From Deltaproteobacteria bacterium (GTDB lineage Bacteria; Desulfobacterota_D; UBA1144; Nemesobacterales; Nemesobacteraceae): a stretch of DNA of 64,000 nucleotides. The position numbers and the translations under genes are program-made. Under the pieces are notes generated by a model. The model searched no databases. It was not told where the DNA came from and was given only the letters and a program-made list of their open reading frames with translations. Where the stretch lies: contig JAJCZR010000068.1 in assembly GCA_029262295.1 (NCBI GenBank), positions 9,749 through 73,748 on the forward strand, read 5' to 3'. Below are positions 8,736-51,630 of this stretch, piece after piece (within the stretch, counting starts at the first letter, position 1; each line of letters opens with the position of its first letter).

Positions 8736-8839
8736 AACTTTAACCCCCTTAATTTGGTTTTAGTATTAAAATAATAATTTAAAACCCTTAATCAAGTCGA
8801 AAGTTAATAGGTCAGTTTAATATCTGATATTTAGAATAA

Positions 8840-10060
8840 TTACCAAAGCGGATTAAAAACAAGTCCCGACATTATTTTTGGATAAAAATAAGTCGTTTTA
8901 TGAGGCATTTTTACCCCATCAAGAACAACTTCAAAAATATCATCAGCGCTGAGTTTTGGAAGTAAGAAGCCAATCTTAAAATCACCTTTTATAACATCAT
9001 TAAATACTTCTTCTGTGAATTTTGAAAACTTTACTCCAGCACTTTTTTCGTTAATGATTTTGCCGAATATCTCACTATGAAGAAGCATTACACCAAGGTT
9101 TTCATAATGCTTTTGTTTAGTTTCTTTGGGAGTTAATTTGTAGATTCCATCTTCATTATCTGTAACTATAGCAATCTGGTTAAATTCAAGGTCTGTCGCA
9201 TCTTCAAGATCAGACTTTTCAATTTTAAAAAACTTTCCAATTTCTTCCATAATTTTATAATCATTCAGTGCCCCAAGATTTTTTATAATCCTGTGTGTTG
9301 GATTAATTATTAATCCCTCTCCCTCACCCCTTGAAAGATACATCATCACATAATCGTAGGGCTTTGTGCCAGAATTTTCTCCGAATTTTTCTCTTTGTTG
9401 ATTTCTATAATTCATCGAGGTTTCATAACGATGATGTCCGTCGGCAATCAAAAGGCTTTTGCCTTTAAGATGATTTTGTATTTCAGAGATAATCCCTGGA
9501 TCAGAAATTTGCCAGAATGTATTTTTAATGCCGTCTTCAGCTTCAATATCAATTAATGGGTTTCCAAGATTGTCGTCTATAAGCTTTTCAACAGCACCTT
9601 CTTTATCTGAATAGACACTGAAAACCTGGCTCATATTTGCGTTACATGCGCTCGTTAGTTTTAGGCGATCTTCTTTATGTTCTTTAAAAGTTTGCTCGTG
9701 AGGTAGGACCGTTTTAGTCTCAAAATCTTCATTTTTCACAACGGCTATAAATCCCTTTCTTTTATAATGTTGACCTTCAAATTCAAATTCCTGATAGTAA
9801 GGATAAATTGAAGGTTCATCTTCCAGGGTTAGTGTATTATTTTCGAGCCATTCTTTGAAAGTAGCACTTGCATTTATATATTTTTCATCTCCCGCACCTT
9901 TGGAAAGGATTAGTCTGATTACATTTAATGGGTCTTTTTGGTAATAGCTTTCCTGTTGCTCACTGTTTATAACATCATAAGGAGGTGCCACCACTTTTGT
10001 GAAATCATTTATTTTGTCCTGATTATAACGAATTCCTTTAAAACCATTAATTTCAGCCAT
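8840..10060 (-). CDS. DUF1015 domain protein
   Basis: 406 aa with the conserved LLIADGHHRYETS motif typical of DUF1015/COG4198. Overlaps tsaC by 8 nt (operon). Confidence 0.55.
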   Translation of the reverse strand: MAEINGFKGIRYNQDKINDFTKVVAPPYDVINSEQQESYYQKDPLNVIRLILSKGAGDEKYINASATFKEWLENNTLTLEDEPSIYPYYQEFEFEGQHYKRKGFIAVVKNEDFETKTVLPHEQTFKEHKEDRLKLTSACNANMSQVFSVYSDKEGAVEKLIDDNLGNPLIDIEAEDGIKNTFWQISDPGIISEIQNHLKGKSLLIADGHHRYETSMNYRNQQREKFGENSGTKPYDYVMMYLSRGEGEGLIINPTHRIIKNLGALNDYKIMEEIGKFFKIEKSDLEDATDLEFNQIAIVTDNEDGIYKLTPKETKQKHYENLGVMLLHSEIFGKIINEKSAGVKFSKFTEEVFNDVIKGDFKIGFLLPKLSADDIFEVVLDGVKMPHKTTYFYPKIMSGLVFNPLW

Positions 10061-10712: not shown

Positions 10713-12200
10713 ATGTCGAATCCAAATAAAAATAGAAACCATTTATGGAAATCTTCATTTGAGTCGAGGTTAGTCAAGATTCTTGGAAGAGAGCTTGTTA
10801 TTTCTCGTGAAGATGAACTTATTGCCTATGATTGTGATGGGCTCACAGGCTACAGGGTAAAACCCATATTTGTTGTACTTCCTGATACAACAGAGCAGGT
10901 GTCGAAAATTGTAAAACTCTGCCATGAAGAGAAAGTTCCGTTTGTCCCAAGGGGGGCAGGCACAGGGCTTTCCGGAGGAGCTTTGCCAACAGAGGAAGGA
11001 ATTGTTATTTCTCTTGCAAGAATGAATAAGATACTTGAGGTTGATATACCCAGCCGATGTGTTGTTGCTGAGCCTGGTGTTGTAAACGCATGGGTTACAA
11101 ATGAAGTAAGTTCTCGTGGATATTACTATGCTCCTGATCCTTCAAGCCAGGTTGTCTGCACTATCGGCGGGAATGTGGCTGAAAATTCAGGTGGTGTACA
11201 TTGCCTTAAATATGGAGTTACTGTAAATCACGTGCTCGGCGTTGAAATGATTTTGCCAGATGGTGAGATAGTGGAGCTAGGGGGTAAAACCCAGGAAAAT
11301 TTTGGATATGATCTTTTATCTTTAGTAGTGGGTTCAGAGGGGCTTTTGGGAATTGTTACAAAAGTTACTTTAAAAATTATTAAAAAACCTGGCGCAGTAA
11401 AAACACTTTTTGCATCTTTTGAAAAGATTGAAGATGCAGGGGAAGCCGTTTCGGGAATTATTTCAGGCGGAATTATTCCTGCCGGGATGGAGATAATGGA
11501 TAACGTGAGTATAAGGGCGGTCGAATCGACTGTAAACGCTGGTTATCCAGAAGATGCAGGAGCTATACTTTTAGTGGAGCTAGATGGTCCCCCCATAGAA
11601 GTGGAGCTTGAGCTTCCTCTTGTAGAGGATGTACTTAAAAAGAATAATGCTATTGAGATCAAAATTGCAAAAACCGAAACAGAAAGAGAGCTTTTTTGGA
11701 AAGGAAGGAAAAGCGCATTTGCTGCAATGGGGAGAATTAGTCCTGAATACTATGTGCAGGATGGAGTAATTCCAAGAAGTAAACTTGCCGAAGTGTTAGG
11801 AGAAATTGGTGAACTCAGCAAAAAATTTGATCTTATAGTTGCAAATGTTTTTCATGCAGGCGACGGTAATCTTCACCCACTAATACTTTATAACTCAAAA
11901 AATGAAGGTGAACTTGAACGGGCAGAAGTACTTGCAGGAGAGATATTGAATGTGTGTGTTGATGCCGGCGGAAGTATTACAGGTGAGCATGGAGTTGGTT
12001 TTGATAAGAAAAGGTTTATGTCAAAAATGTTTAGTGAACAGGATATAGATACAATGAACCTTGTACGTTGCACTTTTGATAGTGAAGGTCTTTGTAATCC
12101 GGGAAAGGTTTTTCCCACTCCAAGGACATGTGTTGAGCCAGGAATGAAAAAATTTGAAGTTCACCCAATTCAAAAAGAAGGCCGTGGAGAGATGTATTAA
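10713..12200 (+). CDS. glcD: Glycolate oxidase subunit GlcD / FAD-linked oxidase
   Basis: 495 aa. FAD-binding PCMH domain (PRGAGTGLSGGALP) and the C-terminal FAD-oxidase domain. Confidence 0.85.
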   Translation: MSNPNKNRNHLWKSSFESRLVKILGRELVISREDELIAYDCDGLTGYRVKPIFVVLPDTTEQVSKIVKLCHEEKVPFVPRGAGTGLSGGALPTEEGIVISLARMNKILEVDIPSRCVVAEPGVVNAWVTNEVSSRGYYYAPDPSSQVVCTIGGNVAENSGGVHCLKYGVTVNHVLGVEMILPDGEIVELGGKTQENFGYDLLSLVVGSEGLLGIVTKVTLKIIKKPGAVKTLFASFEKIEDAGEAVSGIISGGIIPAGMEIMDNVSIRAVESTVNAGYPEDAGAILLVELDGPPIEVELELPLVEDVLKKNNAIEIKIAKTETERELFWKGRKSAFAAMGRISPEYYVQDGVIPRSKLAEVLGEIGELSKKFDLIVANVFHAGDGNLHPLILYNSKNEGELERAEVLAGEILNVCVDAGGSITGEHGVGFDKKRFMSKMFSEQDIDTMNLVRCTFDSEGLCNPGKVFPTPRTCVEPGMKKFEVHPIQKEGRGEMY

Positions 12201-12208
12201 TTATTAAA

Positions 12209-13501
12209 ATGTCTGATCTCAAGCAACTTTCAAAAATAGTATCTGAATTTGAATTTCTTCAACCTGGAGATGAAAGATTTAATGATGCAGGATTTTCTCC
12301 AAAGCTTTTGCTCTTCCCTGCAAATGTTGAAGAGTTATCTGAGTCTATTAAATTTTGTAATAAATCGAAAATACCTCTTGTTCCAATTGGAAATGGCACT
12401 AAACTTTTTATTGGGAATCCGGTTTCAGATGTGAAAGTGGTTGTCTCGCTCAGGGTTATGAACAAGGTTCTTCAATATGAAACTGCTGATCTGGTCTCAA
12501 CAGTGCAGTGTGGAATACTATTTAAAAAGTTTCAACGTTCACTTAATAAGAAAGGGCAAATGTTACCAATCAATAGCCCCTTTGAAGATAACTCGACAAT
12601 GGGCGGGATTATATCCACAAACCTTTCGGGCCCACTTGCCACCAGATATGGAAGTTGCAGGGAGCTTCTTTTGGGAATCAAGGCTGTTAGGGCAGATGGC
12701 GAAATAATAAATTGTGGTGCAAAAGTTGTAAAAAATGTTGCTGGTTATGACATTCCAAAGCTCATGGTTGGAGCACTTGGCACTCTCATAGTTTTGGCTG
12801 AAGCCACATTCAGGCTCTATCCACGCCAGGAGTTTTCAAAAACAGCAATAATGGTTTTAAATGAAAATCAGGATATTAATGATCTTTTTAATAAAATCTG
12901 CGATATAGATGTTATCCCATCATCATTTGAGATACTTGATAAAAACCTTACGGCAAGATTTTTACCCAAAGTAAAAAATTCAATCTGTGTACTTTATAGA
13001 ATTGAAAGTCTCGAAGATGCTGTTGTAAAACAGATGAAAGATCTTCACAAAATAGTTGGTAAAAAGGTAAATGAATTTTTTGAAATTGATGAAAAATCTG
13101 AAAAAAACCTTTGGAAAAAGGTAAGCAGTTTTCCATTTAATACCAAAAGTAAACTAACTTGCAGGGTAAATTTACCGATTGCTAACTCTTTTAAACTTCT
13201 TGAAATACTTAAAGAGATCAATAAAAGCATGAAAGTGAAAATTGAGTTTCTCTTAAGGCCACAAAGAGGGACCACCTTATTTTCGATTGATGGAGAGCCT
13301 GGTGATATTGTTTATGGAGTCAACCTAATTAGAAGCCAGGTAAAAGCGCTTAAAGGCGCAGTTGCACTTACCTCAGTTGCAGATGAACTTAAAGGGCAGG
13401 TAGATGTATTTGGTGATTTTGGGAGTTCTAAGTTGATTATGAAAAATCTTAAAAATCATTTTGATCCGAACAATATACTTAGCCCGGGAAGGATTTTTTA
13501 G
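12209..13501 (+). CDS. glcE: Glycolate oxidase FAD-binding subunit GlcE-like
   Basis: 430 aa FAD-binding PCMH-type protein (PIGNGTKLFIGNP; ISTNLSGP...VVKNVAGYDIPKLMVGALGTL) immediately after glcD. Confidence 0.75.
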   Translation: MSDLKQLSKIVSEFEFLQPGDERFNDAGFSPKLLLFPANVEELSESIKFCNKSKIPLVPIGNGTKLFIGNPVSDVKVVVSLRVMNKVLQYETADLVSTVQCGILFKKFQRSLNKKGQMLPINSPFEDNSTMGGIISTNLSGPLATRYGSCRELLLGIKAVRADGEIINCGAKVVKNVAGYDIPKLMVGALGTLIVLAEATFRLYPRQEFSKTAIMVLNENQDINDLFNKICDIDVIPSSFEILDKNLTARFLPKVKNSICVLYRIESLEDAVVKQMKDLHKIVGKKVNEFFEIDEKSEKNLWKKVSSFPFNTKSKLTCRVNLPIANSFKLLEILKEINKSMKVKIEFLLRPQRGTTLFSIDGEPGDIVYGVNLIRSQVKALKGAVALTSVADELKGQVDVFGDFGSSKLIMKNLKNHFDPNNILSPGRIF

Positions 13502-13507
13502 TTAATT

Positions 13508-14293
13508 ATGATAAGAAGAGATATAGATGGGGGTTGGATACTTATTACCCAGGACGACCATGCAGTCCTTTCTTTTGATATTATGAAAAACTGGGGAAAT
13601 AGTAGGTTCGAGGAAATTATTCCAAATGAGCAGGTTTTAACTGCAATTAAAGAACATGATTGCGGTTGGAAAAAATGGGATAGCAGTTCCGTATTAAATA
13701 AGCAGAATAACTACCCTACCAATTTTATCGAGATGTACACTAACGATCAATATGTAATATGGAAAAACTCTTATGAAAGTCTGAGAGATGATTCAAGTTA
13801 CGCAGCATCACTTGTAGCTCTTCACTTCTCAAAGTTTAATAATAATACTCTTACTAAAAACCCTGATAATCGGACTGCAAAAATATTGAGGGATAAAATA
13901 AATAAATTTGTTCAAAGGAATCTTAAATTAAACTCAGATAATAAAGATAAAAATGGGTTTCTTCCAATTGATGTTAGGATAAATCTCAGGTTTTTGCAAA
14001 TAGGTGATATTGTTTCTCTTGCACTTTGCCATGGTTGGAGTTCAACTGAGATTGAAAATGTGCCGCTAAACTATCATGATGATAATGTGATTTTAAAACT
14101 GAGTTCGCAGGATGGTTTAAACTATGAAATAGACCCAAATCCTTTTCCTGAGAATAATCTAGAATTTAAAGTTAAAGGAAAAAAGCTTCTGAAAAAAGAG
14201 TTTAAGTCACAAGATGAGCTAGACATGGCTTTCAGTGATGCAACAGAACAAATTCTTTCGTTTTCAATTTGCAGCTGCCAGGAGGAAAGATAA
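13508..14293 (+). CDS. Hypothetical protein embedded in the glc operon (possibly DUF3891-like; assignment uncertain)
   Basis: 261 aa ORF tightly packed between glcE (7-nt gap) and glcF (0-nt gap). No recognisable catalytic motif. C-terminal CSC. Confidence 0.5.
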   Translation: MIRRDIDGGWILITQDDHAVLSFDIMKNWGNSRFEEIIPNEQVLTAIKEHDCGWKKWDSSSVLNKQNNYPTNFIEMYTNDQYVIWKNSYESLRDDSSYAASLVALHFSKFNNNTLTKNPDNRTAKILRDKINKFVQRNLKLNSDNKDKNGFLPIDVRINLRFLQIGDIVSLALCHGWSSTEIENVPLNYHDDNVILKLSSQDGLNYEIDPNPFPENNLEFKVKGKKLLKKEFKSQDELDMAFSDATEQILSFSICSCQEER

Positions 14294-15589
14294 ATACCTA
14301 CTTTTAAAGCTTTTGATGAAATAGATAAACCGGATAAAAAAATAATTGATGATTGCGTTCACTGCGGGTTTTGTCTGTCTGCATGTCCGACTTATCTTCA
14401 GACAGGAAATGAACTTGATTCCCCAAGGGGAAGAATTTATTTAATTAAGTCTGCAGCAGCCGGTGAAATAGATATGGACCTCTCACTTGTTAATCATCTT
14501 GATTTGTGCCTTGGTTGCCTTGCTTGTGAGACAGCATGTCCATCAGGGGTTAAATACGGAAGCCTTATTGAGACTGCAAGGGCACAGATAGAAAGAAGAT
14601 ATGAGAGGGGATGGTTCGATAAGGCTTTTAAATCTTTACTGTTTAGTTTGTTTCCTTACGCATCAAGACTAAAATTGATGCTACCCTTTTTCTACCTGTT
14701 AAATCTTTTGAAACTGAAAAGCGTAATAAAACCTGAGTTTTTATACAGAATAAATCCAAAGCTGGGAGCACTTTTTGATGTTCTTCCCGAAGTTAGCACC
14801 CCATTTGTAGAAAAACTTGGGGAATTAATTCCATCAAAGACAGAGAAAAAGTACAGGGTTGCAATGCTTACCGGATGTGTTCAAAGTGCGTTTTTTTCAA
14901 AAACTAACCAGGCGACTGTTAATGTATTAACAAGTAATGGGTGCGAAGTTGTAATCCCTAAAGGACAGGGTTGTTGTGGCGCACTTTCAATTCACTCAGG
15001 AAGGCTTAGTGAAGGTAAAGAGTTTGCAAGAAAGTTGATTGATACATTCACAAAACTTGATGTGGATGCAATTGTTGTTAACTCTGCAGGTTGCGGCTCA
15101 TCAATGAAAGAGTATGGATATATTTTTAAAAATGACCCAGCTTACAAAATAAAAGCAGAAAAGTTATCTCAAAAAACTAAAGATATAATGGAGTTTCTCT
15201 CAGAAATAGGGATTGAAAGTGAACTGCAACCTCTCGATTTAAAAATTACTTATCAGGATGCTTGTCATATTATTCATGGACAAAGAATAAAAAATGAGCC
15301 GCGTGAGATCCTCGAAAAAATTCCAGAACTTAAACTTATAGAAATGAAAAACTCTGATAGATGCTGCGGGAGCGCTGGAATTTATAATATTACCCAGCCG
15401 GATATGTCTCAAAAAATCCTGCATGAGAAAGTGGAAAATATAGAACAAACAGGTTCAGATTATCTTGTTGCCGGTAACCCGGGGTGTCTTTTGCAGATTA
15501 AAAAGGGTTTTACTAAAAACCAAAAAAGCATAAAAACTGCACATCCAGTTGAAATTCTCAACTGGTCAATCAAAGGCAAAATAAGCTAA
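14294..15589 (+). CDS. glcF: Glycolate oxidase iron-sulfur subunit GlcF; start codon non-canonical (AUA at 14294?) or the gene is disrupted
   Basis: The first 4Fe-4S motif CVHCGFCLSACPTY (14354-14395) and ELDSPRGRIYLIK lie upstream of the first ATG (14474). The second cluster CLGCLACETACPSG and the CCG domains follow. The frame is open back to the TAA of the upstream ORF. AGGAGG at 14280-14285 lies 8 nt before ATA at 14294. Confidence 0.75.
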   Translation: MPTFKAFDEIDKPDKKIIDDCVHCGFCLSACPTYLQTGNELDSPRGRIYLIKSAAAGEIDMDLSLVNHLDLCLGCLACETACPSGVKYGSLIETARAQIERRYERGWFDKAFKSLLFSLFPYASRLKLMLPFFYLLNLLKLKSVIKPEFLYRINPKLGALFDVLPEVSTPFVEKLGELIPSKTEKKYRVAMLTGCVQSAFFSKTNQATVNVLTSNGCEVVIPKGQGCCGALSIHSGRLSEGKEFARKLIDTFTKLDVDAIVVNSAGCGSSMKEYGYIFKNDPAYKIKAEKLSQKTKDIMEFLSEIGIESELQPLDLKITYQDACHIIHGQRIKNEPREILEKIPELKLIEMKNSDRCCGSAGIYNITQPDMSQKILHEKVENIEQTGSDYLVAGNPGCLLQIKKGFTKNQKSIKTAHPVEILNWSIKGKIS

Positions 15590-20834: not shown

Positions 20835-20914
20835 ATTATATATTTTGTCTTTGTACCTTTAAAGCTTACTCAGATTCTCACACCTCTATCTGTTTGTTTC
20901 AACAACTATTTCAA

Positions 20915-20953
20915 TTGACAATAAACTTATCTGTATTACATTTGTATTACATA
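20915..20953 (+). promoter_or_regulatory. Candidate promoter (TTGACA-N16-TACATT) with tandem TGTATTACAT direct repeats (likely antitoxin operator) upstream of the RHH/PIN pair
   Basis: TTGACA at 20915-20920. TGTATTACAT at 20933-20942 and again at 20944-20953, just upstream of the GGGAG SD and the ATG at 20969. Confidence 0.4.
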
Positions 20954-20968
20954 TCTGGGAGTTTAAAA

Positions 20969-21229
20969 ATGAGTACTAAAACTGTGCGTTTAGATAATGA
21001 AACTGAAGAGGCTTTGAGAGAAATTAGAAAGCAAACAGGGCTTTCCATATCTGAAGTTCTCAAAGAGGGAATTCTTGTACTTAAAAAAGAAGTTGATGAT
21101 AAGAATAGGCAAAGCCCCTTTGATGTTTATAAAAGCCTCGATTTAGGTGAAGGTGGTTATTCCATAGCACCATCAACAGATACTCGAAAGGGAGTAAGGG
21201 CTGCAATTAAAAAGAAGTTAAATAAATGA
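20969..21229 (+). CDS. Ribbon-helix-helix (CopG/VapB-like) antitoxin
   Basis: About 87 aa from the ATG at 20969. MSTKTVRLDNETEEALREIRKQTGLSISEVLKEGI is a typical RHH N-terminus. Overlaps the downstream PIN gene by 4 nt (ATGA). Confidence 0.7.
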   Translation: MSTKTVRLDNETEEALREIRKQTGLSISEVLKEGILVLKKEVDDKNRQSPFDVYKSLDLGEGGYSIAPSTDTRKGVRAAIKKKLNK

Positions 21230-21639
21230 TCCTTGTAGATACGGGCCCACTCATTGCTCTTTTTGATCCAAAAGACAAAATGCATGAAAGTTGCAAAGAA
21301 ATACTCAAAACTATTGAAGAAAAAATTTGCACTACCATCCCTGTCCTCACTGAAGCTTTTCATATACTAACTCCGGAAAGCATAAGTTCAGACAGATTAA
21401 AAGATTTTATAGTAAAAGGCGGATTATCAATCCTCTTTATGGATGAGAAAGTAATAGAAAGATGCTTTGAATTAATGGAAAAGTATAAAGATCATCCAAT
21501 GGACCTTGCTGATGCTTCATTAATAGCTTCAGCCGAAAAGCTAGAAACCAGAAAAATATTTACAATAGATAGAAATGATTTTGAAACATATCGAATACAA
21601 AAGGGGCATAAATATCTTTCGCCAGAGATTCTAAGTTAA
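21226..21639 (+). CDS. vapC: PIN-domain toxin VapC
   Basis: 137 aa. MILVDTGPLIALF (Asp5), TEAF, DLADAS and TIDRNDF supply the PIN acidic residues. Confidence 0.8.
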   Translation: MILVDTGPLIALFDPKDKMHESCKEILKTIEEKICTTIPVLTEAFHILTPESISSDRLKDFIVKGGLSILFMDEKVIERCFELMEKYKDHPMDLADASLIASAEKLETRKIFTIDRNDFETYRIQKGHKYLSPEILS

Positions 21640-22413: not shown

Positions 22414-23580
22414 TTAAAACTTACTCAAACTCTCGCAGCTTTCCCTGATTATTTCCACCGCTCTGTTAACTTCTTCAAAAGTGTTTTCAGGGCTGAAGCT
22501 GAATCTGATGCTTGAATATGCTTCTTTTTCACTTAATCCCATTGCCATTAAGACGTATGAAGGAGTGCTGTCAAAATTAGTGCAGGCTGAGCTTTGAGAG
22601 CACCTGATTCCTCTTTTATCAAGGAGTTGAAGAAGTCTTCTCCCATCAAGATCATCAAATTTGATATTGGTTGTATTACATATTCTGTTTTTTGGACATC
22701 CGTTTACTTTTGTGCCTGGGATAAAATCAAGAAGCATTGCTTCAAATCGGTCGCGAATCTCTTTCATCTTCATTTTTAGCTTTCTAAGGTTTTCATGCCT
22801 GATCTCGGAGGCTTTTCCGATACCAACAATTCCGGGGAGGTTCTCTGTGCCGGGCCTAAAGCCTTCTTCCTGAAAACCACCAAATAAAATTGGGTTTACA
22901 AGAAACCTGTCTTTTGCATAAAGCACTCCACAACCTTGGGGAGCATTGTATTTATGTCCTGTGAAAGAAAGAAAATCGACTGATAGTTTATCAATATCAA
23001 TCTCCATTTTGCCTACAGCCTGAGCTGCATCAGTGTGGAAAATTACACCTTTTTCCATACAGAGTTTTGATATCGATTCTAAATCCTGAATAACTCCTGT
23101 TTCGTTATTTACCCACTGTACAGAAACTAAATCCACTTTTTTTTGATCCAATATCTTTTCAAGATCATCTATAATCACAAAACCGTTTTCATCTACACCA
23201 AGCATTTCCACTTCGACATTGTTTATCTTGAGATAGCTGCACATTTTTAATATAGAAGAATGTTCAACCATTGTTGTGACAACTTTTTTAGAGCCATTTC
23301 CATTTTTTGTGCAGGAATAAAAAGCCATATTGTTGGATTCAGTGCCCGAGCTAGTAAAAATAATGTGATCTGGACAACAGCCAATGAGGCTTCCTGTGCA
23401 CTCTCGAGACTTTTTAAGATGTTCTCTTGCCCTTTCTCCACCTGAGTGGGCACTTGATGGGTTTCCAAATTCTTTGCTTAATACTTTTATAACTGCTTCG
23501 CGCACTTCTTTCGAAGGCATGGTTGTGGCATTATTATCAAAATAGATTTCTGCAGAACTTTGTTTACACCCCATACTCAT
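22414..23580 (-). CDS. Cysteine desulfurase, NifS/IscS family (class V aminotransferase)
   Basis: 388 aa. PLP-lysine motif SFTGHKYNAPQGCGVLYAK. Active-site Cys loop SSACTNFDSTPSYVLMAMG. Confidence 0.85.
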   Translation of the reverse strand: MSMGCKQSSAEIYFDNNATTMPSKEVREAVIKVLSKEFGNPSSAHSGGERAREHLKKSRECTGSLIGCCPDHIIFTSSGTESNNMAFYSCTKNGNGSKKVVTTMVEHSSILKMCSYLKINNVEVEMLGVDENGFVIIDDLEKILDQKKVDLVSVQWVNNETGVIQDLESISKLCMEKGVIFHTDAAQAVGKMEIDIDKLSVDFLSFTGHKYNAPQGCGVLYAKDRFLVNPILFGGFQEEGFRPGTENLPGIVGIGKASEIRHENLRKLKMKMKEIRDRFEAMLLDFIPGTKVNGCPKNRICNTTNIKFDDLDGRRLLQLLDKRGIRCSQSSACTNFDSTPSYVLMAMGLSEKEAYSSIRFSFSPENTFEEVNRAVEIIRESCESLSKF

Positions 23581-23628
23581 GAGTATAATCGATAATTGCA
23601 GACAGTAGCAATTAGAAAAAATAGCGTT

Positions 23629-24012
23629 TTATTCATACAAATCAGCCGGAGTAAAAAGTGTGATGCATGGATTTTTATTTTCTTTGCTTACAGGGCCAAT
23701 AAAAGATGAAACCTCTGTGTTTTCACTCTTTCCATCTTTGGTAAATGATGCATTAAAATTTATAATGTTTGTTTTCTTGGTTTGCCTACTGAGTCTAATT
23801 GCCATTACGAGCTGAGATAGTATCTCTTTTGTCCTTCCATTTTCGTTCTCCCCCATTTTTACTGCTTCCTCATCAGGTTGGATAATCCCGTTCCATATAC
23901 TTGATGTTAAAAATACGGGCATAAGAAGCCCGGAATTTTTTGCCTGTTCTGAAATATCAATTTGATTTTCATTCTCCAGATCTTCACTTCTATTAATGTA
24001 AAAATTCTCCAT
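23629..24012 (-). CDS. Hypothetical protein
   Basis: 127 aa ORF. No recognisable motif. Confidence 0.35.
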   Translation of the reverse strand: MENFYINRSEDLENENQIDISEQAKNSGLLMPVFLTSSIWNGIIQPDEEAVKMGENENGRTKEILSQLVMAIRLSRQTKKTNIINFNASFTKDGKSENTEVSSFIGPVSKENKNPCITLFTPADLYE

Positions 24013-24138
24013 TGTCTAATCTCCAGAAATGTATTAGATTCCATTATGATCGAAAAGAATCTATTTGCAAAAATTTAGCTTATATATTGTAAGTGATATA
24101 ATTAGTTTTGGCAGGAACATTTTGGTGATGAGGTCTAT

Positions 24139-24693
24139 TTGAGAAAAATTTCTTTATTTTTGCTTATAACTTTTCTATTTTTACCCTACAACTCCTTTTC
24201 AATGAGTGACGAAGAGATCAACTACAGGTATAGCATTGCTTCAACCACAAGCGATCTTCTTGCAATCCGAAGAATATTTGGCGAAATCCTTCAATCAGGT
24301 GATCTTGATTACAGTTTCCAGGCCGCAAGAGATGTTATTTCCACACTTGATAAAATAGGAAAAGATCTTGATGATCTGGTTGTTCCCGGGAAAATGGAAG
24401 ATCCCTATAATGTGTTTTTGGAATCCGTAAAATCCTATAGAAAAAGTGCTACATGCATCAGAAATTCTGCTGAGATAATGCTTGGCTATTTTGATGGAAC
24501 AGAAGAAGATGCAGCTAGTCTTATGAAAAGAAGCACTGATTATGTGGAGCTTGCAAATAAATATTTTGATCTTAGCTTTGATCTTCACTCCGAGGTTTTT
24601 GATAAAGAAAAAAAAGAAGGTTTTCCAAAAGACTTTTTTAAAGAAAAAGATATTGAAAATCCAGAAAAAGATTCAGAAAAACTCTCTATTTAG
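24139..24693 (+). CDS. Hypothetical secreted protein
   Basis: 184 aa with signal peptide MRKISLFLLITFLFLPYNSFS. Acidic C-terminus. Confidence 0.4.
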   Translation: MRKISLFLLITFLFLPYNSFSMSDEEINYRYSIASTTSDLLAIRRIFGEILQSGDLDYSFQAARDVISTLDKIGKDLDDLVVPGKMEDPYNVFLESVKSYRKSATCIRNSAEIMLGYFDGTEEDAASLMKRSTDYVELANKYFDLSFDLHSEVFDKEKKEGFPKDFFKEKDIENPEKDSEKLSI

Positions 24694-24704
24694 CACCCAA
24701 ATTA

Positions 24705-25484
24705 ATGAGTAGAAAAGTAAAACAACTAGAGTTAATTCCAGTGTATGGAATTCCTGAGCTTAAGCCGAAAGATAACCTTGCACAAATAATAGTGTCTTCA
24801 ATAAAAAATGAAGATATTGAGATTAAAAATAAAGATATTTTAGTAATTGCTCAAAAAATTGTCTCAAAAGCCGAAAACAGAATTGTAGACTTAAAGAAGA
24901 TCAAACCTTCCAAATTTGCAAAAAAATTGTCTGAAGAAATATCAAAAGATCCCCGTCTTTTGGAAGTTATTCTTGGTGAGACAACAAAAATAATTAAAAT
25001 GGATGAAAGGGTAAGTGGCAAAGGAAGGTTGATTGTGGAAACTATTGGAGGACTTATATCTGCAAATGCTGGGGTGGACGCTTCAAATGTTTCAGGAGGG
25101 GATCATGTAACTCTTCTACCTCTTGATTCTGACAAGTCTGCCAAGGAGATAAGAAAAGGGCTGAAGTCAGCCACGAAAAAAAATGTGGCTGTAATAATCA
25201 GTGATACAGTGGGCAGGCCGTGGAGAAATGGTTTAGTGGATATAGCAATAGGCTGCGCCGGGATAAACCCACTCAGGGACCAAAGGGGTGAGCTTGATTC
25301 AAAGGGGCTTCAGCTTGTTGCCACAGAAATGGCCACTGCCGATCAGGTTGCCTGTGCAGCGGGGCTACTAATGGAAAAATCAGAAGGGATTCCGGTTGTA
25401 ATTGTAAGAGGCTGTAATTATTTATCTGGAAATAAGGGTTCTGGAAATCTTATAAGAGATCCTAAAGAAGATTTATTTAGATGA
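24705..25484 (+). CDS. CofE-like protein (F420-0:gamma-glutamyl ligase family fold)
   Basis: 259 aa. LISANAGVDASNVSGGDHVTLLPLDSDKSAKEIR ... VAVIISDTVGRPWRNGLVDIAIGCAGINPLRDQRGELDSKG ... ATADQVACAAGLLMEKSEGIPVVIVRG matches the conserved CofE core. Confidence 0.7.
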   Translation: MSRKVKQLELIPVYGIPELKPKDNLAQIIVSSIKNEDIEIKNKDILVIAQKIVSKAENRIVDLKKIKPSKFAKKLSEEISKDPRLLEVILGETTKIIKMDERVSGKGRLIVETIGGLISANAGVDASNVSGGDHVTLLPLDSDKSAKEIRKGLKSATKKNVAVIISDTVGRPWRNGLVDIAIGCAGINPLRDQRGELDSKGLQLVATEMATADQVACAAGLLMEKSEGIPVVIVRGCNYLSGNKGSGNLIRDPKEDLFR

Positions 25485-25491
25485 TAATTTT

Positions 25492-26349
25492 CTAGATATA
25501 AATAATAAGTCCAAATAAGATTATCCAACTCAACACACATACAAAAAGCCACTTGTCTTTTAAAAGAACTTCTGTGGGATCACCTTCAGACTTATTTCTT
25601 ATTATGTATAAATACCTTAGTGTTCCGAAGCAAACAAAAGGGGTTGTCGTAAAAAAAATCTTCCATCCTTTATTTAAAGAGTAGATTGAAAATGTAATTA
25701 TTGATCCTAAAGAGAGTAAGATAGATGCAACATCAAGAAACTTCTTGTTGTAATGTTCAAGTACTTCCCTGAAATGATGCCCTTGCCGTGCAACCCCGAG
25801 TTCCACTTTTCTTTTTCCGAATGCAAGAAGAAGGGAAAGAAACAGTGTAGTTATATAAAGCCAGTTTGATACATCTACGTTTAGGGCAAGCCCACCAGCA
25901 ATTATTCTTAATAAAAAACCTGTGGCAATACAAAGTGAGTCTACAATGAATATCTTCTTTAATACAAGTGAATAAAGAACCGTGATAGCTAGATAGACCA
26001 AAGTTGTAAGCAGAAAATAAAAATTAACTTTTAAAGATATAAAAATTGATAAGATCAAAAGAAATCCGGCAATGATGATAACTGTGTTTTTACTAATTCT
26101 TCTCGAAGCAACCGGCCTGTTTCTCTTTTTTGGGTGAAGCCTGTCATTTTTAGCATCAAGAAGATCATTTATGAGATAACCTACTGATGACATTAATGAA
26201 AACGAGATAAAGGCAAGAAATATAGTGAGAAAATTTTCAGAATTAAGGAAAACAATTCCGCCAAAAAAAGGTGGTGCTACTACAAGAAGATTCTTTATCC
26301 AGTGGTGAGGGCGAATTAAAATAATGATGTCTTTAAGTCGTGAAAACAT
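25492..26349 (-). CDS. UbiA-family transferase, decaprenyl-phosphate phosphoribosyltransferase (DPPR synthase, Rv3806c/NoeC)-like
   Basis: 285 aa polytopic membrane protein with the characteristic NDLLDAKNDRLHPKKRNRPVASRRIS motif (ND..D...DR.HP.K..RP.AS). Confidence 0.7.
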   Translation of the reverse strand: MFSRLKDIIILIRPHHWIKNLLVVAPPFFGGIVFLNSENFLTIFLAFISFSLMSSVGYLINDLLDAKNDRLHPKKRNRPVASRRISKNTVIIIAGFLLILSIFISLKVNFYFLLTTLVYLAITVLYSLVLKKIFIVDSLCIATGFLLRIIAGGLALNVDVSNWLYITTLFLSLLLAFGKRKVELGVARQGHHFREVLEHYNKKFLDVASILLSLGSIITFSIYSLNKGWKIFFTTTPFVCFGTLRYLYIIRNKSEGDPTEVLLKDKWLFVCVLSWIILFGLIIYI

Positions 26350-26390
26350 TTTTTACCATTCTACTATCTTGCTAATACATTTCAATCAGA

Positions 26391-27098
26391 GTGAGTATAT
26401 TTAGGCTTATGGATAATACTTTTGATGATGGATTCATATTGATTGCGCACAGAGGTGCGAGTTCTTACAAACCCGAAAATACAATGCTTTCCTTTCAGAA
26501 GGCAATTGAACTTGGAGCAAAAATAATTGAGTTTGATGTCAGAAAAAGCCTGGATGGCCATCTTGTAGTTATGCACGACAGTAAAGTTAATAGAACGACT
26601 AATGGGGATGGTAAGGTCAATAATATAAACCTGGCTGAACTAAATAACCTCGATGCGGGAAATGGTGAGAAAATACCAACTGTTGAAGATGTTCTTATTT
26701 TGTTTAAAGGCAAGGGTAAATTTGTTATAGAACTTAAAGAAGAGAATACGGAAAAGCAGATTCTGGACATGATATATAAATATGATCTTGCAAATGATGT
26801 GATTTTGGTTTCTTTTAAAAAAAGGGTTTTAAAAAGACTGCGGGCCCTTGATGGCAATATTACGACTGGCTTAATAACACTCACTGGTATTGGTTGTGTA
26901 AGGACTGCGGTTGAACTAGGATGTAGGGCAGTTGCAACACATGTTTATCTTGCAACAAAAAACAAGGTGCAAAATGCACATGAAAACGGGCTTCTTTTTT
27001 TCTGCTGGACTACAGATGACAAGAGAAAATGTTTGGAACTAAAAAGAAAAGGTGTAGATGGTGTAATTACCAATAAGCCTGACCTTTTGGAAAGATAA
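26391..27098 (+). CDS. Glycerophosphodiester phosphodiesterase (GDPD) family protein
   Basis: 235 aa. LIAHRGASSYKPENTMLSFQKAIELGAKIIEFDVRKSLDGHLVVMHD carries the GDPD catalytic His/Arg/Glu/Asp motif. Confidence 0.8.
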   Translation: MSIFRLMDNTFDDGFILIAHRGASSYKPENTMLSFQKAIELGAKIIEFDVRKSLDGHLVVMHDSKVNRTTNGDGKVNNINLAELNNLDAGNGEKIPTVEDVLILFKGKGKFVIELKEENTEKQILDMIYKYDLANDVILVSFKKRVLKRLRALDGNITTGLITLTGIGCVRTAVELGCRAVATHVYLATKNKVQNAHENGLLFFCWTTDDKRKCLELKRKGVDGVITNKPDLLER

Positions 27099-28246
27099 TG
27101 GAAAAAATATATCTCGATTACAACGCCACAACACCTCTTGATCCCCGGGTCTTTGATGCAATGATTCCATACTTAAAAACCAATTATGGTAATCCATCAA
27201 GTATTCACTCTTATGGAAATATTGCTAAAGCAGCACTTGATGAATCAAGAGAGCGAGTTGCAGAATTTATTGGTTCCAAGCCACGAGAAATAGTATTTAC
27301 TACTGGTGGAAGTGAAAGCAACAACTTTGCTATTAAAGGCGTGGCATATTCTTTGAAAGAGAAGGGCAACCATCTGATTACTGTTGAAACCGAACATGCA
27401 TCCTGTCTTGAGGTATTCAGATTCTTAGAAAAACAAGGTTTTGAGGTTACCTATCTTCCGGTTGATAGCTTTGGTTTAATTGATTTAGATGAGCTGGCTG
27501 ATTCTGTTACGGATAAAACAATATTAATATCCTGTATGTATGTAAACAATGAGACAGGTGTAATAAACCCAATTTCGAAAGTTGGTGAAATTGCAAGAGA
27601 AAAAGGTGTGCTCTTTCACTCTGATATGGTGCAGGCAGCAGGAAAGATGGAGGTTGATCTTTCAGAGTTGTCTGTTGATTTAGCATCTTTTTCTTCACAT
27701 AAGGTTTATGGTCCTAAAGGAGTTGGTGCATTATATATAAAAAAAGGTGTCAACCTGGATTCTCTAATTCATGGTGGTGGACAGGAGCGTGGAAGAAGAT
27801 CAGGCACTGAAAATGTTGCAGGAATATTTGGATTTGGAAATGCCTGTGAGTTTACAAAAAAGGAATTTAAAGAAGAACAAGACAGGCTATTAGGTCTGAG
27901 GGAACTTCTTTCTGAAAATATATCAAAGGTAGAAGGAACTTACCTGAATGGCCATCCTGACCTCAGAGTTTCAAACACTTTAAATATTGGATTTGAAGAT
28001 ATTGAGGGTGAATCCCTTGTTATGAACCTTGATCTTGAAGGAATCGCAGTTTCAACTGGTTCTGCCTGCTCTGAAGGAAATGTTGATCCCTCACATGTAC
28101 TTTTGGCTATGGGTCTTCAAAAGAAAGAGGCAATCTCGTCATTGAGGATCAGTTTTGGAAGGTTTACAAAGAAAGAGGAAATCGAAAAAATTATACATGC
28201 TCTACCAAAAGTGGTTGAAAGAATAAGAGGTATAAAAGAGTTTTAG
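27098..28246 (+). CDS. Cysteine desulfurase, NifS/IscS family (second, divergent paralog)
   Basis: 382 aa. SFSSHKVYGPKGVGALYIKKG. Active-site loop STGSACSEGNVDPSHVLLAMG. Confidence 0.85.
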   Translation: MEKIYLDYNATTPLDPRVFDAMIPYLKTNYGNPSSIHSYGNIAKAALDESRERVAEFIGSKPREIVFTTGGSESNNFAIKGVAYSLKEKGNHLITVETEHASCLEVFRFLEKQGFEVTYLPVDSFGLIDLDELADSVTDKTILISCMYVNNETGVINPISKVGEIAREKGVLFHSDMVQAAGKMEVDLSELSVDLASFSSHKVYGPKGVGALYIKKGVNLDSLIHGGGQERGRRSGTENVAGIFGFGNACEFTKKEFKEEQDRLLGLRELLSENISKVEGTYLNGHPDLRVSNTLNIGFEDIEGESLVMNLDLEGIAVSTGSACSEGNVDPSHVLLAMGLQKKEAISSLRISFGRFTKKEEIEKIIHALPKVVERIRGIKEF

Positions 28247-28259
28247 TTTGGAAAAAACC

Positions 28260-29003
28260 TCAGCGGCAAATAAGTGTGTTTTTACTATCAATATGAAAGT
28301 GATTTGCGTGAAGTGAATTATATTCCGGGCCAAGAACTGTTCCAAAGAATTTGCAAGCTCCATCTTTAAATTGAAATAAAAAATCAGATTTTTCCGCCTC
28401 ATTCTCATTATCCCAGTGTTTTAAAACTGAGACTGTTCTTCCATCACTCAGCTTTAAACCTGCAATATCTAAAGCGGAAGCAGTTGCGTGCTCACTCTTT
28501 TTGCCAACAACGCTATTGTTGATATTACGGCAAGCAAAGCTTCCATAGTGATTGATTTTATCTACTGATTTTCCAAATACTTCTTTTGCCAGTGGTTGTA
28601 GGCTTTGTTGTTCAAACATAAGCCATGCAACAGTAAGCGGGCAGCTCAAAATAAACTCTCTATTGAATTTTACTCCCGTGTTTTTTATTTTAATAACATT
28701 GGTTAAAGGGCATCCTTCAACAGGGGTGTAATCTCGAAGGGATTTGTAGTTAATGTCTTTTGGATAAACTTCAGACAGTATTTGAAGGCACTCATCCGGA
28801 TTTTGCTTTAGGTTATTTAACTTCCATTTTGTAATAAGGTTTATCGGCTGGTTAATTGTGAGAGGTGCCCAGGGATTCCAGTGAGGAGGTATTTTAGACC
28901 AGTTGTGTTTTATGATAAGTGTGAGGAATGAAAAAGTGGCTATAAACAAAAGCATAATAGTTAATTTCCAGATCTTCCCTTTTTTATTCATCTGCAAAGT
29001 CAT
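28260..29003 (-). CDS. Extensin-like C-terminal domain protein (membrane-anchored)
   Basis: 247 aa. N-terminal TM. LSCPLTVAW ... SFACRNINNSVVGKKSEHATASALDIAGL ... NHFHID matches the extensin-like_C (COG3921) pattern. Confidence 0.55.
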   Translation of the reverse strand: MTLQMNKKGKIWKLTIMLLFIATFSFLTLIIKHNWSKIPPHWNPWAPLTINQPINLITKWKLNNLKQNPDECLQILSEVYPKDINYKSLRDYTPVEGCPLTNVIKIKNTGVKFNREFILSCPLTVAWLMFEQQSLQPLAKEVFGKSVDKINHYGSFACRNINNSVVGKKSEHATASALDIAGLKLSDGRTVSVLKHWDNENEAEKSDFLFQFKDGACKFFGTVLGPEYNSLHANHFHIDSKNTLICR

Positions 29004-35604: not shown

Positions 35605-36588
35605 TTGATGAACCTGAGTGAAATTTTAAGCGTAATTTCAAGCGATTTAAGTGGAGTGGAAGACAGGATTGAAAAGGAAATTCAATCTGATATTCCTCTT
35701 GTTTATGAAATATCAAAATATCTTCTTGGAAGTGGTGGTAAAAGGTTAAGGCCATCTGTATTACTTCTTTCGAGTGGTGCCTGCGGGCTTTTGGAGGGTG
35801 AGAACAGAGTTGCTGCCGCTACTGCGCTTGAACTTATTCATACTGCCACACTTCTTCATGATGATGTTGTGGATGATGCAACACTCAGGAGGGGAAAGAC
35901 TTCTTCTAACGTTCGTTGGGGAAATAAACCAACAGTACTTGTTGGAGATTTTATGCTTGCAAAAGCGCTTAGTCTACTTCAAAGTTGCGGAAATCTGGAG
36001 CTTATAAAGGCAGTTACAGATGCTTCGGCAAAACTTGCTGAGGGGCAGGTGTTGGAAGTAATGAGTGGAAAAAATATGGTGGACGTTTCTGAAGATATAT
36101 GTTTTTCAATTATAGATCACAAGACTGCATCTTTAATAGAAAGTTGTGGAAAAGTTGGGGCACTTCTTTCTAACGCCGGAAATGGTTCAGTAAAGGCACT
36201 TTCTGAATATGGCCAGAATATAGGCATTGCGTTTCAGTTAATAGATGATGCTCTTGATTATACATCAAGTGAAAAAGAATTTGGTAAACAGGTTGGCCAT
36301 GATCTTTTAGAGCGAAAGATGACACTTCCTCTTTATTATTCATTGGAAAAAGCCCCTCAATCAACAAGGAGAAATGCAAGGGCAATACTTGAAAAAGACA
36401 GCTTTGAGAACTCAGAGGTTGAGGAGCTAAGAGCAATTGTGGATAAATTTAATGGCGTGAAAATTACTTATAACGTTGCTTCTGATTTTATAAAAAAAGC
36501 AAAAAGCTCAATAAAAATAATTCCTGAAAACAGCTACAAAGATTCTCTGAATAAACTTGCCGATTATGTTGTGGACAGAAATTTTTGA
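35605..36588 (+). CDS. ispB: Polyprenyl diphosphate synthase (octaprenyl/heptaprenyl, IspB-like)
   Basis: 327 aa. First DDxxD (LLHDDVVDD) and second (FQLIDDALD) aspartate-rich motifs. Confidence 0.85.
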   Translation: MMNLSEILSVISSDLSGVEDRIEKEIQSDIPLVYEISKYLLGSGGKRLRPSVLLLSSGACGLLEGENRVAAATALELIHTATLLHDDVVDDATLRRGKTSSNVRWGNKPTVLVGDFMLAKALSLLQSCGNLELIKAVTDASAKLAEGQVLEVMSGKNMVDVSEDICFSIIDHKTASLIESCGKVGALLSNAGNGSVKALSEYGQNIGIAFQLIDDALDYTSSEKEFGKQVGHDLLERKMTLPLYYSLEKAPQSTRRNARAILEKDSFENSEVEELRAIVDKFNGVKITYNVASDFIKKAKSSIKIIPENSYKDSLNKLADYVVDRNF

Positions 36589-47622: not shown

Positions 47623-49086
47623 GTGGATAATGAAGTTTTGTCAGAAGAACTAAAAAAGTATGTATCAAATATTGATAAAGATATTTACACTGTAAGTAAT
47701 ATCCCCGAAGAAGTAATTGCCGTAATATTTGCTTATGTGAGCAGGAGTTCCAAAGGGTTTAGAGAAAATATTGATGTAGTAATAAAAGAGGAGCAACACG
47801 GTAGGGAAAGGGCAGCGAAGTTTCATGAAAAATGGGTTCTAAATTATGGCCACGCATCTGTGGCTGAACATGCCGCTGTACACATGGGTGTTGAAAAAGT
47901 ATCAAGGCTTTTTTCTTCCATATTTGAACTTAGTAATGAATTTCTGTCTTTTACTGAATATTCTCAAAGATACCAAAGACCAAAAAAAGGCGATTTTTAT
48001 GTACCTGATGAACTTTCATCAAATCAAACTCTAAAAACAGAATTTACTCAGCTTTGTGACTATCAGTATGACATTTATGCAAGACTTAACTCAAAGCTTT
48101 TAGAATATCTCAAAGATAAAAATCCAGTACCTTCTGATCAAGACGAGAAAAGACACATCTCAGCACTTGAAAAAATTGCTTTTGAAGATGCAAGGTATGC
48201 ACTCAACCTTGCTACTCTTACCAATCTTGGGATGACAGCCAATGCAAGGGCAATTGAAGACTGTATCTCCAGCCTTCTTTCATCAAAGTATCCAGAAGTA
48301 AGGAAAAGAGCTCGGGAAATGAAAGATGAAGTTAAGTTTTCCGTGCCCACACTCGTAAAGTATGCAAATGAAAATGAATATATAGTTAATACAAGAAAGG
48401 AGTTTTCCCATTTTGATTTAAAAGTTTCTGAATCTGCCCTGAATGGCCCTACTGCAAATCTTTTAGACTTTACGGGAAGGGAAAATGCTAAGCCTGAGAA
48501 TGAGGCTATTAGAAAAGTTTTGCAGGCACTTTTTTATAAATATTCAGAGGCTGATCTTGAGAGTATCAATAGTGAAACTTCCGTTGAACCAGTTGAACTT
48601 GTAGGGCTTTTTGAAAAAGCAGTGAATAGCCTTAGTAAACATGATAATCCAACGAATATATTTAAACTCATAAAGTATGAAGCTGAATTTATACTGAGTG
48701 AAGCCAACTGGCATCAACTTCTTCGCCATAGAAAAGTAAACTGGATTGTAAAAGATCCGTCTGTGAAGAATGGTATAACCGTTCCCCCCAATATCACTGA
48801 GTCAGGCAACACTGATCTTTTAATGAAGGCAGTGGAAATGAGCGAAAGGCTGTATAATAAATTAGTTGAGAGCGGTTTTGAAACTACTGCCCATTATGTT
48901 GTTACAAATGCCCATAATAGAAGAGTAATTGGGGATTTTGATCTTTGGGAACTTTATCATCTTATAAATCTCAGAATGTCTGAGGGTGCGCAGTGGGACA
49001 TTAAAAAGCTTATAGCTGATCTTGCGGAAAAGATTGCTAAATATCACCCTAATCTTGTAAAACCAGCTTTATTGAGGGTTCATTAG
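47623..49086 (+). CDS. ThyX-like (flavin-dependent thymidylate synthase) long-form protein
   Basis: 487 aa. The first half has ThyX-like NYGHASVAEH and YSQRY but no RHR. The second half has LLRHRKVNWIVKDPS (RHRx7-9S-like) and a WDIKKLIADLAEKIAKYHP C-terminal segment. Confidence 0.5.
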   Translation: MDNEVLSEELKKYVSNIDKDIYTVSNIPEEVIAVIFAYVSRSSKGFRENIDVVIKEEQHGRERAAKFHEKWVLNYGHASVAEHAAVHMGVEKVSRLFSSIFELSNEFLSFTEYSQRYQRPKKGDFYVPDELSSNQTLKTEFTQLCDYQYDIYARLNSKLLEYLKDKNPVPSDQDEKRHISALEKIAFEDARYALNLATLTNLGMTANARAIEDCISSLLSSKYPEVRKRAREMKDEVKFSVPTLVKYANENEYIVNTRKEFSHFDLKVSESALNGPTANLLDFTGRENAKPENEAIRKVLQALFYKYSEADLESINSETSVEPVELVGLFEKAVNSLSKHDNPTNIFKLIKYEAEFILSEANWHQLLRHRKVNWIVKDPSVKNGITVPPNITESGNTDLLMKAVEMSERLYNKLVESGFETTAHYVVTNAHNRRVIGDFDLWELYHLINLRMSEGAQWDIKKLIADLAEKIAKYHPNLVKPALLRVH

Positions 49087-51023: not shown

Positions 51024-51254
51024 TTGATGTCAATCCAGCGTAAAGAATACACATCTCCTGTTGAAGCTCTTGCTTCTATTATTCGTTCGTTGTTTGAATA
51101 CGAGCGAAAGTATAAAATATCTTCAGATGATTTTTTCAATCGTTACCAAGAGGGTAAGATGGAAGATTCTGCTGATTTTGTGGAGTGGGCTGGAGATTAT
51201 CAACATTATATAAATCTTAAAGAAGAATTGGAACGAAAGCTCATTGCAGTATGA
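51024..51254 (+). CDS. Small hypothetical protein, upstream partner of an overlapping two-gene (toxin/antitoxin-like) module
   Basis: 76 aa. Overlaps the downstream ORF by 11 nt. Confidence 0.45.
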   Translation: MMSIQRKEYTSPVEALASIIRSLFEYERKYKISSDDFFNRYQEGKMEDSADFVEWAGDYQHYINLKEELERKLIAV

Positions 51255-51630
51255 TAAATCTCTTCTGGAATATCTTGAGTATGTCCGTCACCTAATACAG
51301 GATTTTAATGATTCAAAAATAGAACAGTATCAAGAAGAGATTCTCTCAAATAATAGAATTAATATTCGGGTAAGGCTTAGGTTTTCTGATAATTCTCTAT
51401 TGCAAATAAGTGAAGCTATCTTTTTGAAAGCTGAAGAAAGTTCTTGGCTTAGTTATCGTTATCATTACCAAGATTCTTCAAAAAAGTTAGTCTTTCGTTA
51501 TGATAATACTCCACATTATCCTGATATTTCTACTCATCCAGATCATAAACATGAAGGTGATCAAGTTTTGGAAAGTTCAAGGCCAACAATTGAGCAGGTA
51601 TTGTTAGAAATAAAAAACTTTTTAAAATAA
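51244..51630 (+). CDS. Hypothetical protein with C-terminal His-rich motif (YDNTPHYPDISTHPDHKHEGD); resembles DUF6516/TumE-like toxin family (tentative)
   Basis: 128 aa. TTG start in the track. Conserved-looking HYP...HPDHKH motif. Confidence 0.45.
   Translation: MQYDKSLLEYLEYVRHLIQDFNDSKIEQYQEEILSNNRINIRVRLRFSDNSLLQISEAIFLKAEESSWLSYRYHYQDSSKKLVFRYDNTPHYPDISTHPDHKHEGDQVLESSRPTIEQVLLEIKNFLK

Follow-up and report, generated by a model that had tools for sequence, protein, structure and literature searches.

Extracytoplasmic pentofuranosylation, described for Citrobacter youngae O1/O2, depends on three components: a polyprenyl phosphoribose synthase, a flippase and a GT-C glycosyltransferase (Kelly et al. 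2024, PMC11127046). Such systems also require a separate phosphatase, and the phosphatases come from varied families (PMC11127046). They are related to the mycobacterial enzyme Rv3806c, a decaprenyl-phosphate 5-phosphoribosyltransferase (DPPRS) in which twelve residues bind Mg, ribose, the 5-phosphate and pyrophosphate (PMC10994848), and to the pilin arabinosylation pathway of P. aeruginosa. Here we analyse a stretch of 64,000 nucleotides (hereafter the window) in which a gene of the Rv3806c type, encoding a UbiA-superfamily protein, lies at positions 22414-28246 together with cofE, which encodes a ligase of coenzyme F420 biosynthesis, a gene for a glycerophosphodiester phosphodiesterase (GDPD), two genes for NifS-type cysteine desulfurases and two small open reading frames (ORFs). 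The closest described relatives of the CofE protein are the A. fulgidus enzyme (2PHN, 7ULD) and FbiB's N-terminal domain, and residues R234, G153 and R154 of A. fulgidus CofE contact the isoalloxazine (PMC10861534). Those of the GDPD are cytosolic enzymes such as UgpQ and the T. tengcongensis protein (2PZ0).

An initial annotation of this DNA had suggested that CofE, UbiA and GDPD may belong to one lipid-linked sugar or headgroup module. Our analysis points instead, with a probability that we put at about two in three, to a block of gene order that is conserved within its lineage and holds four functionally separate units. Every component belongs to an already known kind, and the region looks ordinary, with no new pathway. 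Family memberships, synteny patterns and cassette variability were observed directly, and the enzyme activities ascribed below to the genes of the block are predictions.

Results and Discussion

A variable cassette within a conserved gene order

All seven ORFs of the region lie where the initial annotation had placed them (Table 1), and its family calls for CofE, the DPPRS-type UbiA protein, GDPD and the NifS-type desulfurases hold. As it had also stated, the UbiA gene stands between cofE and the GDPD gene; it is convergent with cofE across a 7-nt gap and divergent from the GDPD gene at a distance of 41-59 nt. This trio recurs in the closest relatives of the window (CofE identity 77-86%), and comparison across Candidatus Dadabacteria loci revealed three states of the interval between CofE and GDPD. 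In the first, a gene for a GT-C-like protein with C-terminal tetratricopeptide repeats (TPRs) accompanies UbiA (loci L002, L007, L011 and L012). UbiA occurs alone in the second, which comprises the window, the P0003 contig (with 86% identity in CofE) and L094 (with 77%). Neither gene is present in the third (L005/6, L008/9, L010, L097 and L098/99), where GDPD follows CofE after 12-85 nt. Since the UbiA-less state falls on two separate branches of a neighbour-joining tree of CofE, two independent losses are indicated. Because of these three states and the losses across lineages we regard UbiA as part of a dispensable cassette, and the window lineage is an intermediate state of cassette loss. 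All genes of the block are intact relative to L094 despite saturated synonymous sites (dS >1.5 or undefined in the dN/dS comparison of the window with L094).

Several lines of evidence speak against the single module of the initial annotation. At least five lineages have retained CofE and GDPD but have no UbiA. The CofE of the window retains 53 of the 55 positions conserved in CofEs that adjoin CofD, and Dadabacteria carry cofD-cofG-cofH. Finally, the contexts of DPPRS-like genes outside Dadabacteria were sampled by tblastn against annotated plasmids, and in the three records obtained, all from other bacteria, these genes lay beside GT39 genes, with or without DprE1/E2-like genes, and never beside GDPD or CofE.

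A split UbiA-like ORF in L097 was considered as a relic of the cassette and rejected, as it belongs to a different UbiA subfamily. At L012, a reverse transcriptase gene (group II intron or retron-like; positions 11992-13536 of that locus) is inserted between CofE and GT-C/TPR. At L010, an IS630 transposase (8825-9916) lies between the DUF6573 gene and CofE.

Table 1. Genes of the region 22414-28246, with positions in the window
Product	Position	Strand	Length (aa)	Family or structural match
NifS_L, divergent class-V aminotransferase / NifS-IscS-type cysteine desulfurase paralog	22414-23580	-	388	PF00266
DUF6573-family protein	23629-24012	-	127	PF20213 (36.6 bits; cut-off 27)
Hydrophobic-N-terminus protein	24139-24693	+	184	no family match
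CofE, coenzyme F420-0:L-glutamate (gamma-glutamyl) ligase, stand-alone type	24705-25484	+	259	PF01996, TIGR01916
UbiA-superfamily polyprenyl-phosphate 5-phosphoribosyltransferase (DPPRS/PPPRS type)	25492-26349	-	285	NF008977/NF008978, Rv3806c
Soluble glycerophosphodiester phosphodiesterase (GDPD fold)	26391-27098 (likely start ATG 26409)	+		PF03009
NifS_R, IscS/NifS-type cysteine desulfurase	27098-28246	+	382	PF00266, NF002806

The UbiA-family protein and its predicted partner

The UbiA protein scored 95.5 bits against PF01040. Its best NCBIfam matches were the DPPRS models (NF008976-8), with 205.1, 203.7 and 160 bits against cut-offs of 234, 207 and 474; NF008977 (205 bits) and NF008978 (204 bits) both fell narrowly below the curated cut-off, and the ortholog in L012 reached 232.4 bits against the DPPRS cut-off of 234. 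Models for MenA, UbiA, heme-O and chlorophyll synthase gave 51 bits at most, and the HAD-UbiA model PRK08238 gave 176 bits. By this ranking the protein is most probably of the DPPRS type and not of the MenA, UbiA or chlorophyll-synthase type. Its motif NDLLDAKNDRLHPKKRNRPVAS (residues 61-82) agrees exactly with the pattern NDxxDxxxDRxHPxKxxRPxAS on which the initial annotation had based the same assignment. The protein has about nine hydrophobic segments and belongs to a large family (1,841 clusters at 50% identity with E<=1e-30).

The best match in the PDB, over the full length, was M. tuberculosis Rv3806c (8J8J, E=2.4e-37). Nine of the twelve ligand-binding residues of Rv3806c are kept (R22, K28, Y70, N73, D77, K87, R90, Y138 and K143); Y157 is replaced by Phe, a tolerated change that also occurs in some mycobacteria, and two residues differ (Q135 is T123 and K208 is E195 in the window protein). 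With nine residues kept, a tenth tolerated and a GT-C partner in relatives, the role of a maker of polyprenyl-phospho-pentose donors, as proposed initially, appears well supported. UbiA would transfer phosphoribose from phosphoribosyl pyrophosphate to polyprenyl phosphate, and the resulting lipid-linked ribofuranose-5-phosphate, once dephosphorylated and flipped, would serve a periplasmic GT-C glycosyltransferase as donor. The ORF is undamaged in L094 (62% amino-acid identity) in spite of saturation at synonymous sites; the UbiA of the window is therefore probably functional, with its partner probably elsewhere in the genome.

The candidate partner is the GT-C/TPR gene of L002, L007, L011 and L012, which is convergent with the UbiA gene and overlaps it. 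It encodes a protein of 587-601 aa, which we classify as a GT-C-type glycosyltransferase because of its 7-10 hydrophobic segments, its match to PMT_2 (30.2 bits in L007 against a cut-off of 26.1) and its C-terminal TPRs. The content of the window was examined by Pfam scans of about 55 ORFs and by phmmer searches of all ORFs of at least 50 aa, using as seeds the CofD, CofG/H, LLM, Fno, FDOR, nitroreductase and GT-C proteins of related loci. These searches found no GT-C, DprE1/E2, CofC, CofD, CofG, CofH or F420-dependent enzyme in the 64 kb, and so bear out the earlier statement that the window holds no other F420 or arabinan genes. No GT-C was found in L094 either. In the window lineage the GT-C/TPR partner would have been lost from the locus, and may be encoded elsewhere in the genome or lost altogether.

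The UbiA of the window shares with the three-component pentofuranosylation systems the NDxxDxxxD loop, the K/R cluster, and the Lys and Tyr that bind the 5-phosphate, and in relatives it is likewise paired with a multi-pass GT-C-like protein. The differences concern the surrounding components. The window lineage lacks an adjacent GT-C, a fused HAD phosphatase domain and a PAP2 gene; neither a dedicated flippase (MATE, SMR or GtrA) nor a 5-phosphate phosphatase was found in the window. The lack of DprE1/E2 or any other epimerase would make ribofuranose the sugar. In relatives, the GT-C carries C-terminal TPRs in place of a carbohydrate-binding module, a feature that hints at a protein acceptor. 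These loci would extend the known range of polyprenyl-phosphoribose and GT-C glycosylation systems to Candidatus Dadabacteria, in which the cassette is seen at different stages of loss.

A small EamA-type membrane protein of 137-145 aa is encoded after GDPD in L002 (14314-14730), L011 (15016-15453), L097 (11602-12015) and L098 (11510-11923), and is absent from the window. It was considered as the flippase of the cassette, being near it in L002 and L011, and was rejected since L097 and L098 retain it in spite of having no cassette. A trans-type polyprenyl synthetase (PF00348) is encoded 9 kb downstream in the window (35605-36588); it probably serves quinone synthesis and has no obvious link to UbiA.

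CofE and the F420 pathway

The CofE of the window matched PF01996 with 237 bits and the equivalog model TIGR01916 with 252.6 bits, above the curated cut-off of 180.65, covering profile positions 2-244 of 244; the assignment made initially is thereby secured. It aligned over its full length with A. fulgidus CofE (2PHN/7ULD, E=4e-41). The isoalloxazine-contacting R234, G153 and R154 correspond to R251, G170 and R171 of the window protein. Also conserved are D109, D150 and T151 of the A. fulgidus enzyme, which we take to be metal ligands. For a wider comparison, we took 46 CofEs adjoining CofD and the 55 columns whose conservation among them is at least 90%; the window CofE was identical at 53 of these columns. 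This conservation argues for F420 as the substrate. By orthology, cofE would add gamma-glutamates to F420-0 using GTP.

The protein differs from FbiB in standing alone, without the nitroreductase domain, and from both reference proteins in that its gene is not beside cofD or cofC, in an inserted ERVSGKG and in a Gln at position 214. The insertion, of about seven residues (residues ~101-107), is common to Dadabacteria CofEs relative to most CofEs. Gln replaces Glu at position 214 in most Dadabacteria CofEs, while Glu is kept in L011 and L012. The neighbour-joining tree groups the Dadabacteria CofEs in a single clade, in which L012 is basal.

A genome scan with the CofE alignment yielded 80 loci, 77 of them from outside Dadabacteria at 41-50% identity, including Acidobacteriota, Chloroflexota, Alphaproteobacteria and Thaumarchaeota. 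CofD lay within 10 kb of CofE in 46 of these 77 loci, and across the scan CofG/H was found in 29 loci, F420-dependent LLM enzymes in 26 and Fno in 22; representatives of these neighbouring F420 gene clusters exceed the NCBIfam cut-offs. Neither UbiA nor GDPD was found within 10 kb of CofE in any of the 77, and only loci of the Dadabacteria type have either.

Within Dadabacteria, the metagenome-assembled genome represented by L012 has CofD-CofG-CofH, CofE and the series GT-C/TPR-UbiA-GDPD-CysE-NifS within 20 kb. CofD (partial at the edge of the locus), CofG (431 bits) and CofH (489 bits) lie 7-10 kb upstream of CofE, and the synteny downstream of CofE is the same as in the window. A cofD-cofG-cofH operon is also present in the Dadabacteria assemblies L090, L095 and L096, two of which have 38-39% GC, in housekeeping contexts with no cofE nearby; a position of cofE apart from the other F420 genes is therefore normal in this phylum. 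The rest of the pathway, as the cofD-cofG-cofH operon, would lie elsewhere in Dadabacteria genomes, and we infer that the remaining F420 genes are present in this particular genome. L012 and related loci give locus-level support to the prediction that Dadabacteria make F420.

GDPD, cysteine desulfurases and small open reading frames

The GDPD matched PF03009 with 153 bits over profile positions 1-244 of 244 (gathering score 23.6), and its best PDB match was 2PZ0 (E=3e-33). It resembles UgpQ-like cytosolic enzymes in having the full GDPD TIM barrel, the catalytic His/Arg/Glu/Asp motifs (HRG, E-x-D as EFD, and HD), a length of about 230 aa and a soluble character, with no hydrophobic segment. 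Unlike UgpQ, for which the equivalog cut-off is 264, it scored 118 bits on that model, and unlike UgpQ-like enzymes it always stands beside cofE and shows translational coupling to a cysteine desulfurase. Its stop codon overlaps the start of NifS_R (TAATG). CysE follows GDPD in L011, and lies between GDPD and NifS in L012. We picture a cytosolic glycerophosphodiester phosphodiesterase that would be co-translated with a housekeeping desulfurase of the IscS/NifS type.

The two desulfurases at the borders share 40% identity, in keeping with the strong divergence that the initial annotation had noted. NifS_R scored 296.8 bits against PF00266 and 502 bits against TIGR03402 (NifS; cut-off 530.75), and it alone of the two passes the IscS subfamily model NF002806 (342.2 bits; cut-off 304). 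For NifS_L the corresponding values were 242.7, 398.5 and 243.3 bits, the last two under their cut-offs; its PLP-lysine (HK) and SSAC cysteine motifs are readable. The DUF6573 gene is always just upstream of NifS_L on the same strand, and this pair is conserved in L005-L010 and L094. Orthologs of the DUF6573 protein from six loci and L094 have an invariant cysteine in a C-terminal 'PCITL'. A single-sequence AF2 model of the protein had a pLDDT of 51 and was unusable. NifS_L would be a second, divergent desulfurase paired with the DUF6573 protein and, more speculatively, the latter may accept sulfur as a persulfide from it.

Both small ORFs had initially been called unannotatable. That holds for the 184-aa ORF, which has no match in Pfam or NCBIfam; the 127-aa ORF is the one now assigned to DUF6573. 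The 184-aa ORF ends 11 nt upstream of cofE, and its product has one N-terminal hydrophobic segment and is likely secreted. It is conserved only in the marine lineage of the window, with 72% identity in L094 and an ORF of 187 aa in the P0003 contig.

Alternative readings of the gene order

Several observations weigh against a block of separate units. In each Dadabacteria locus CofE keeps GDPD as its same-strand neighbour, also where the genes further out are not the same, and a functional pair would be expected to show just such a persistent adjacency. Wherever both UbiA and GDPD occur, they are divergent, with 41-70 nt between them. At position 214 of CofE, 93% of the reference CofEs have Glu. 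Two homolog searches with Dadabacteria CofD gave no CofD match on the same contig as a CofE of the window type, and cofC, cofD, cofG and cofH were not linked to the window genome or to its two nearest clades; eight genomes of more than 1 Mb with a window-type CofE were absent among the best 146 CofD matches, which reach down to about 60% identity. Within the window, no phosphatase or flippase for the UbiA product was identified.

One alternative is a Dadabacteria-specific pairing of CofE with GDPD, in which GDPD would act in the making or turnover of F420 or of an F420 variant with a phosphodiester side chain, or CofE would have a non-F420 substrate where cofD has been lost. Their same-strand adjacency holds in all of the roughly 12 Dadabacteria-type contexts, GDPD adjoining either CofE or the cassette in each, and neither CofD search linked cofD to any genome with a window-type CofE. 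Yet GDPD is missing from the 10-kb surroundings of CofE in the 77 loci of other phyla and is not next to cofDGH in L090, L095 and L096, the residues of CofE favour F420, and a literature search for F420 biosynthesis with glycerophosphodiester found no paper. GDPD is moreover equally tied to the CysE and NifS genes downstream, which suggests an inherited order. We consider such a pairing unlikely. Its narrower form, also quite unlikely, would apply to the streamlined marine Dadabacteria and to those sister clades in which GDPD follows cofE after 12-85 nt: the two genes would be a true operon and work together, with a GDPD-fold enzyme acting on F420, or on a variant of it, at the phosphodiester side chain, or with an orphan CofE that, in genomes lacking cofD, glutamylates another phosphodiester-linked carboxylate. 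If true, a functional CofE-GDPD pairing would mean an undescribed step in the metabolism of F420, or that the CofE fold has a new substrate.

We rate as very unlikely that GDPD processes the product of UbiA, for example by standing in for HAD or PAP2 phosphatases in the removal of the ribose 5-phosphate, or by recycling a glycerophospho-linked acceptor. The short divergent spacing in the window, L094, L002, L007, L011 and L012 would fit such a role, as would the lack of a visible phosphatase in the cassette, given that the known systems need one (PMC11127046). However, loci devoid of UbiA and GT-C still have an unchanged GDPD, and the three plasmid records with DPPRS-like genes show no visible phosphatase either. 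GDPD enzymes are, furthermore, diesterases and not monoesterases.

Scarcely credible is one new pathway in which UbiA would make a polyprenyl-phospho-pentose, the CofE-fold ligase would glutamylate it or a related carboxylate, and GDPD would trim the phosphodiester, so that a novel headgroup or lipid-linked sugar results. In its favour, the three genes adjoin one another in the window and its nearest relatives, lie within one block in L002, L007 and L011, and have no other F420 gene beside them in the 64 kb, but the lineages that dispense with UbiA, the isoalloxazine-contacting and family-conserved residues of CofE, the cofDGH genes of Dadabacteria and the plasmid contexts all oppose it.

We therefore retain the reading of a conserved gene order with functionally separate units. 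The result matters mainly for annotation, as a caution against inferring function from adjacency inside one phylum whose genomes are largely collinear.

Host lineage and other features of the window

The GC content of the window is 35.7%, which agrees with the low-GC marine lineage of Dadabacteria described previously (PMC8115339), and homologs of CofE that are 60-88% identical bear the labels Candidatus Dadabacteria or Thermodesulfobacteriota. The source organism is a low-GC member of Candidatus Dadabacteria. Horizontal acquisition of the block was considered and rejected, the GC being uniform across the window. In a scan for promoters and terminators, counts for the region did not exceed those for shuffled sequence, and an Rfam scan of the whole window gave no match.

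Other parts of the window showed features of their own. To the left of the region, an RHH/DUF6290-like antitoxin gene (20894-21229) overlaps a PIN-domain toxin gene (21226-21639) by 4 nt; this pair is absent from the same position in L094 and the P0003 contig and looks like a strain-specific insertion. The slot between NifS_R and ArgC (28260-29003) is also variable, with an Extensin-like_C gene in the window and a gene for a DNA_alkylation protein in L094; it is empty in the P0003 contig and clade A. Further upstream, a glycolate-oxidase-like cluster (10713-15589) encodes two FAD_binding_4 proteins and a CCG-domain protein, whose genes are separated by an inserted DUF3891 gene, an order that is conserved in the Dadabacteria loci L005, L008 and L010. 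Downstream, a ThyX of 487 aa (47623-49086) has two Thy1 domain stretches and about twice the usual length, as a fused or duplicated flavin-dependent thymidylate synthase would, and an ORF of 128 aa (51244-51630) carries a TumE toxin domain (81 bits).

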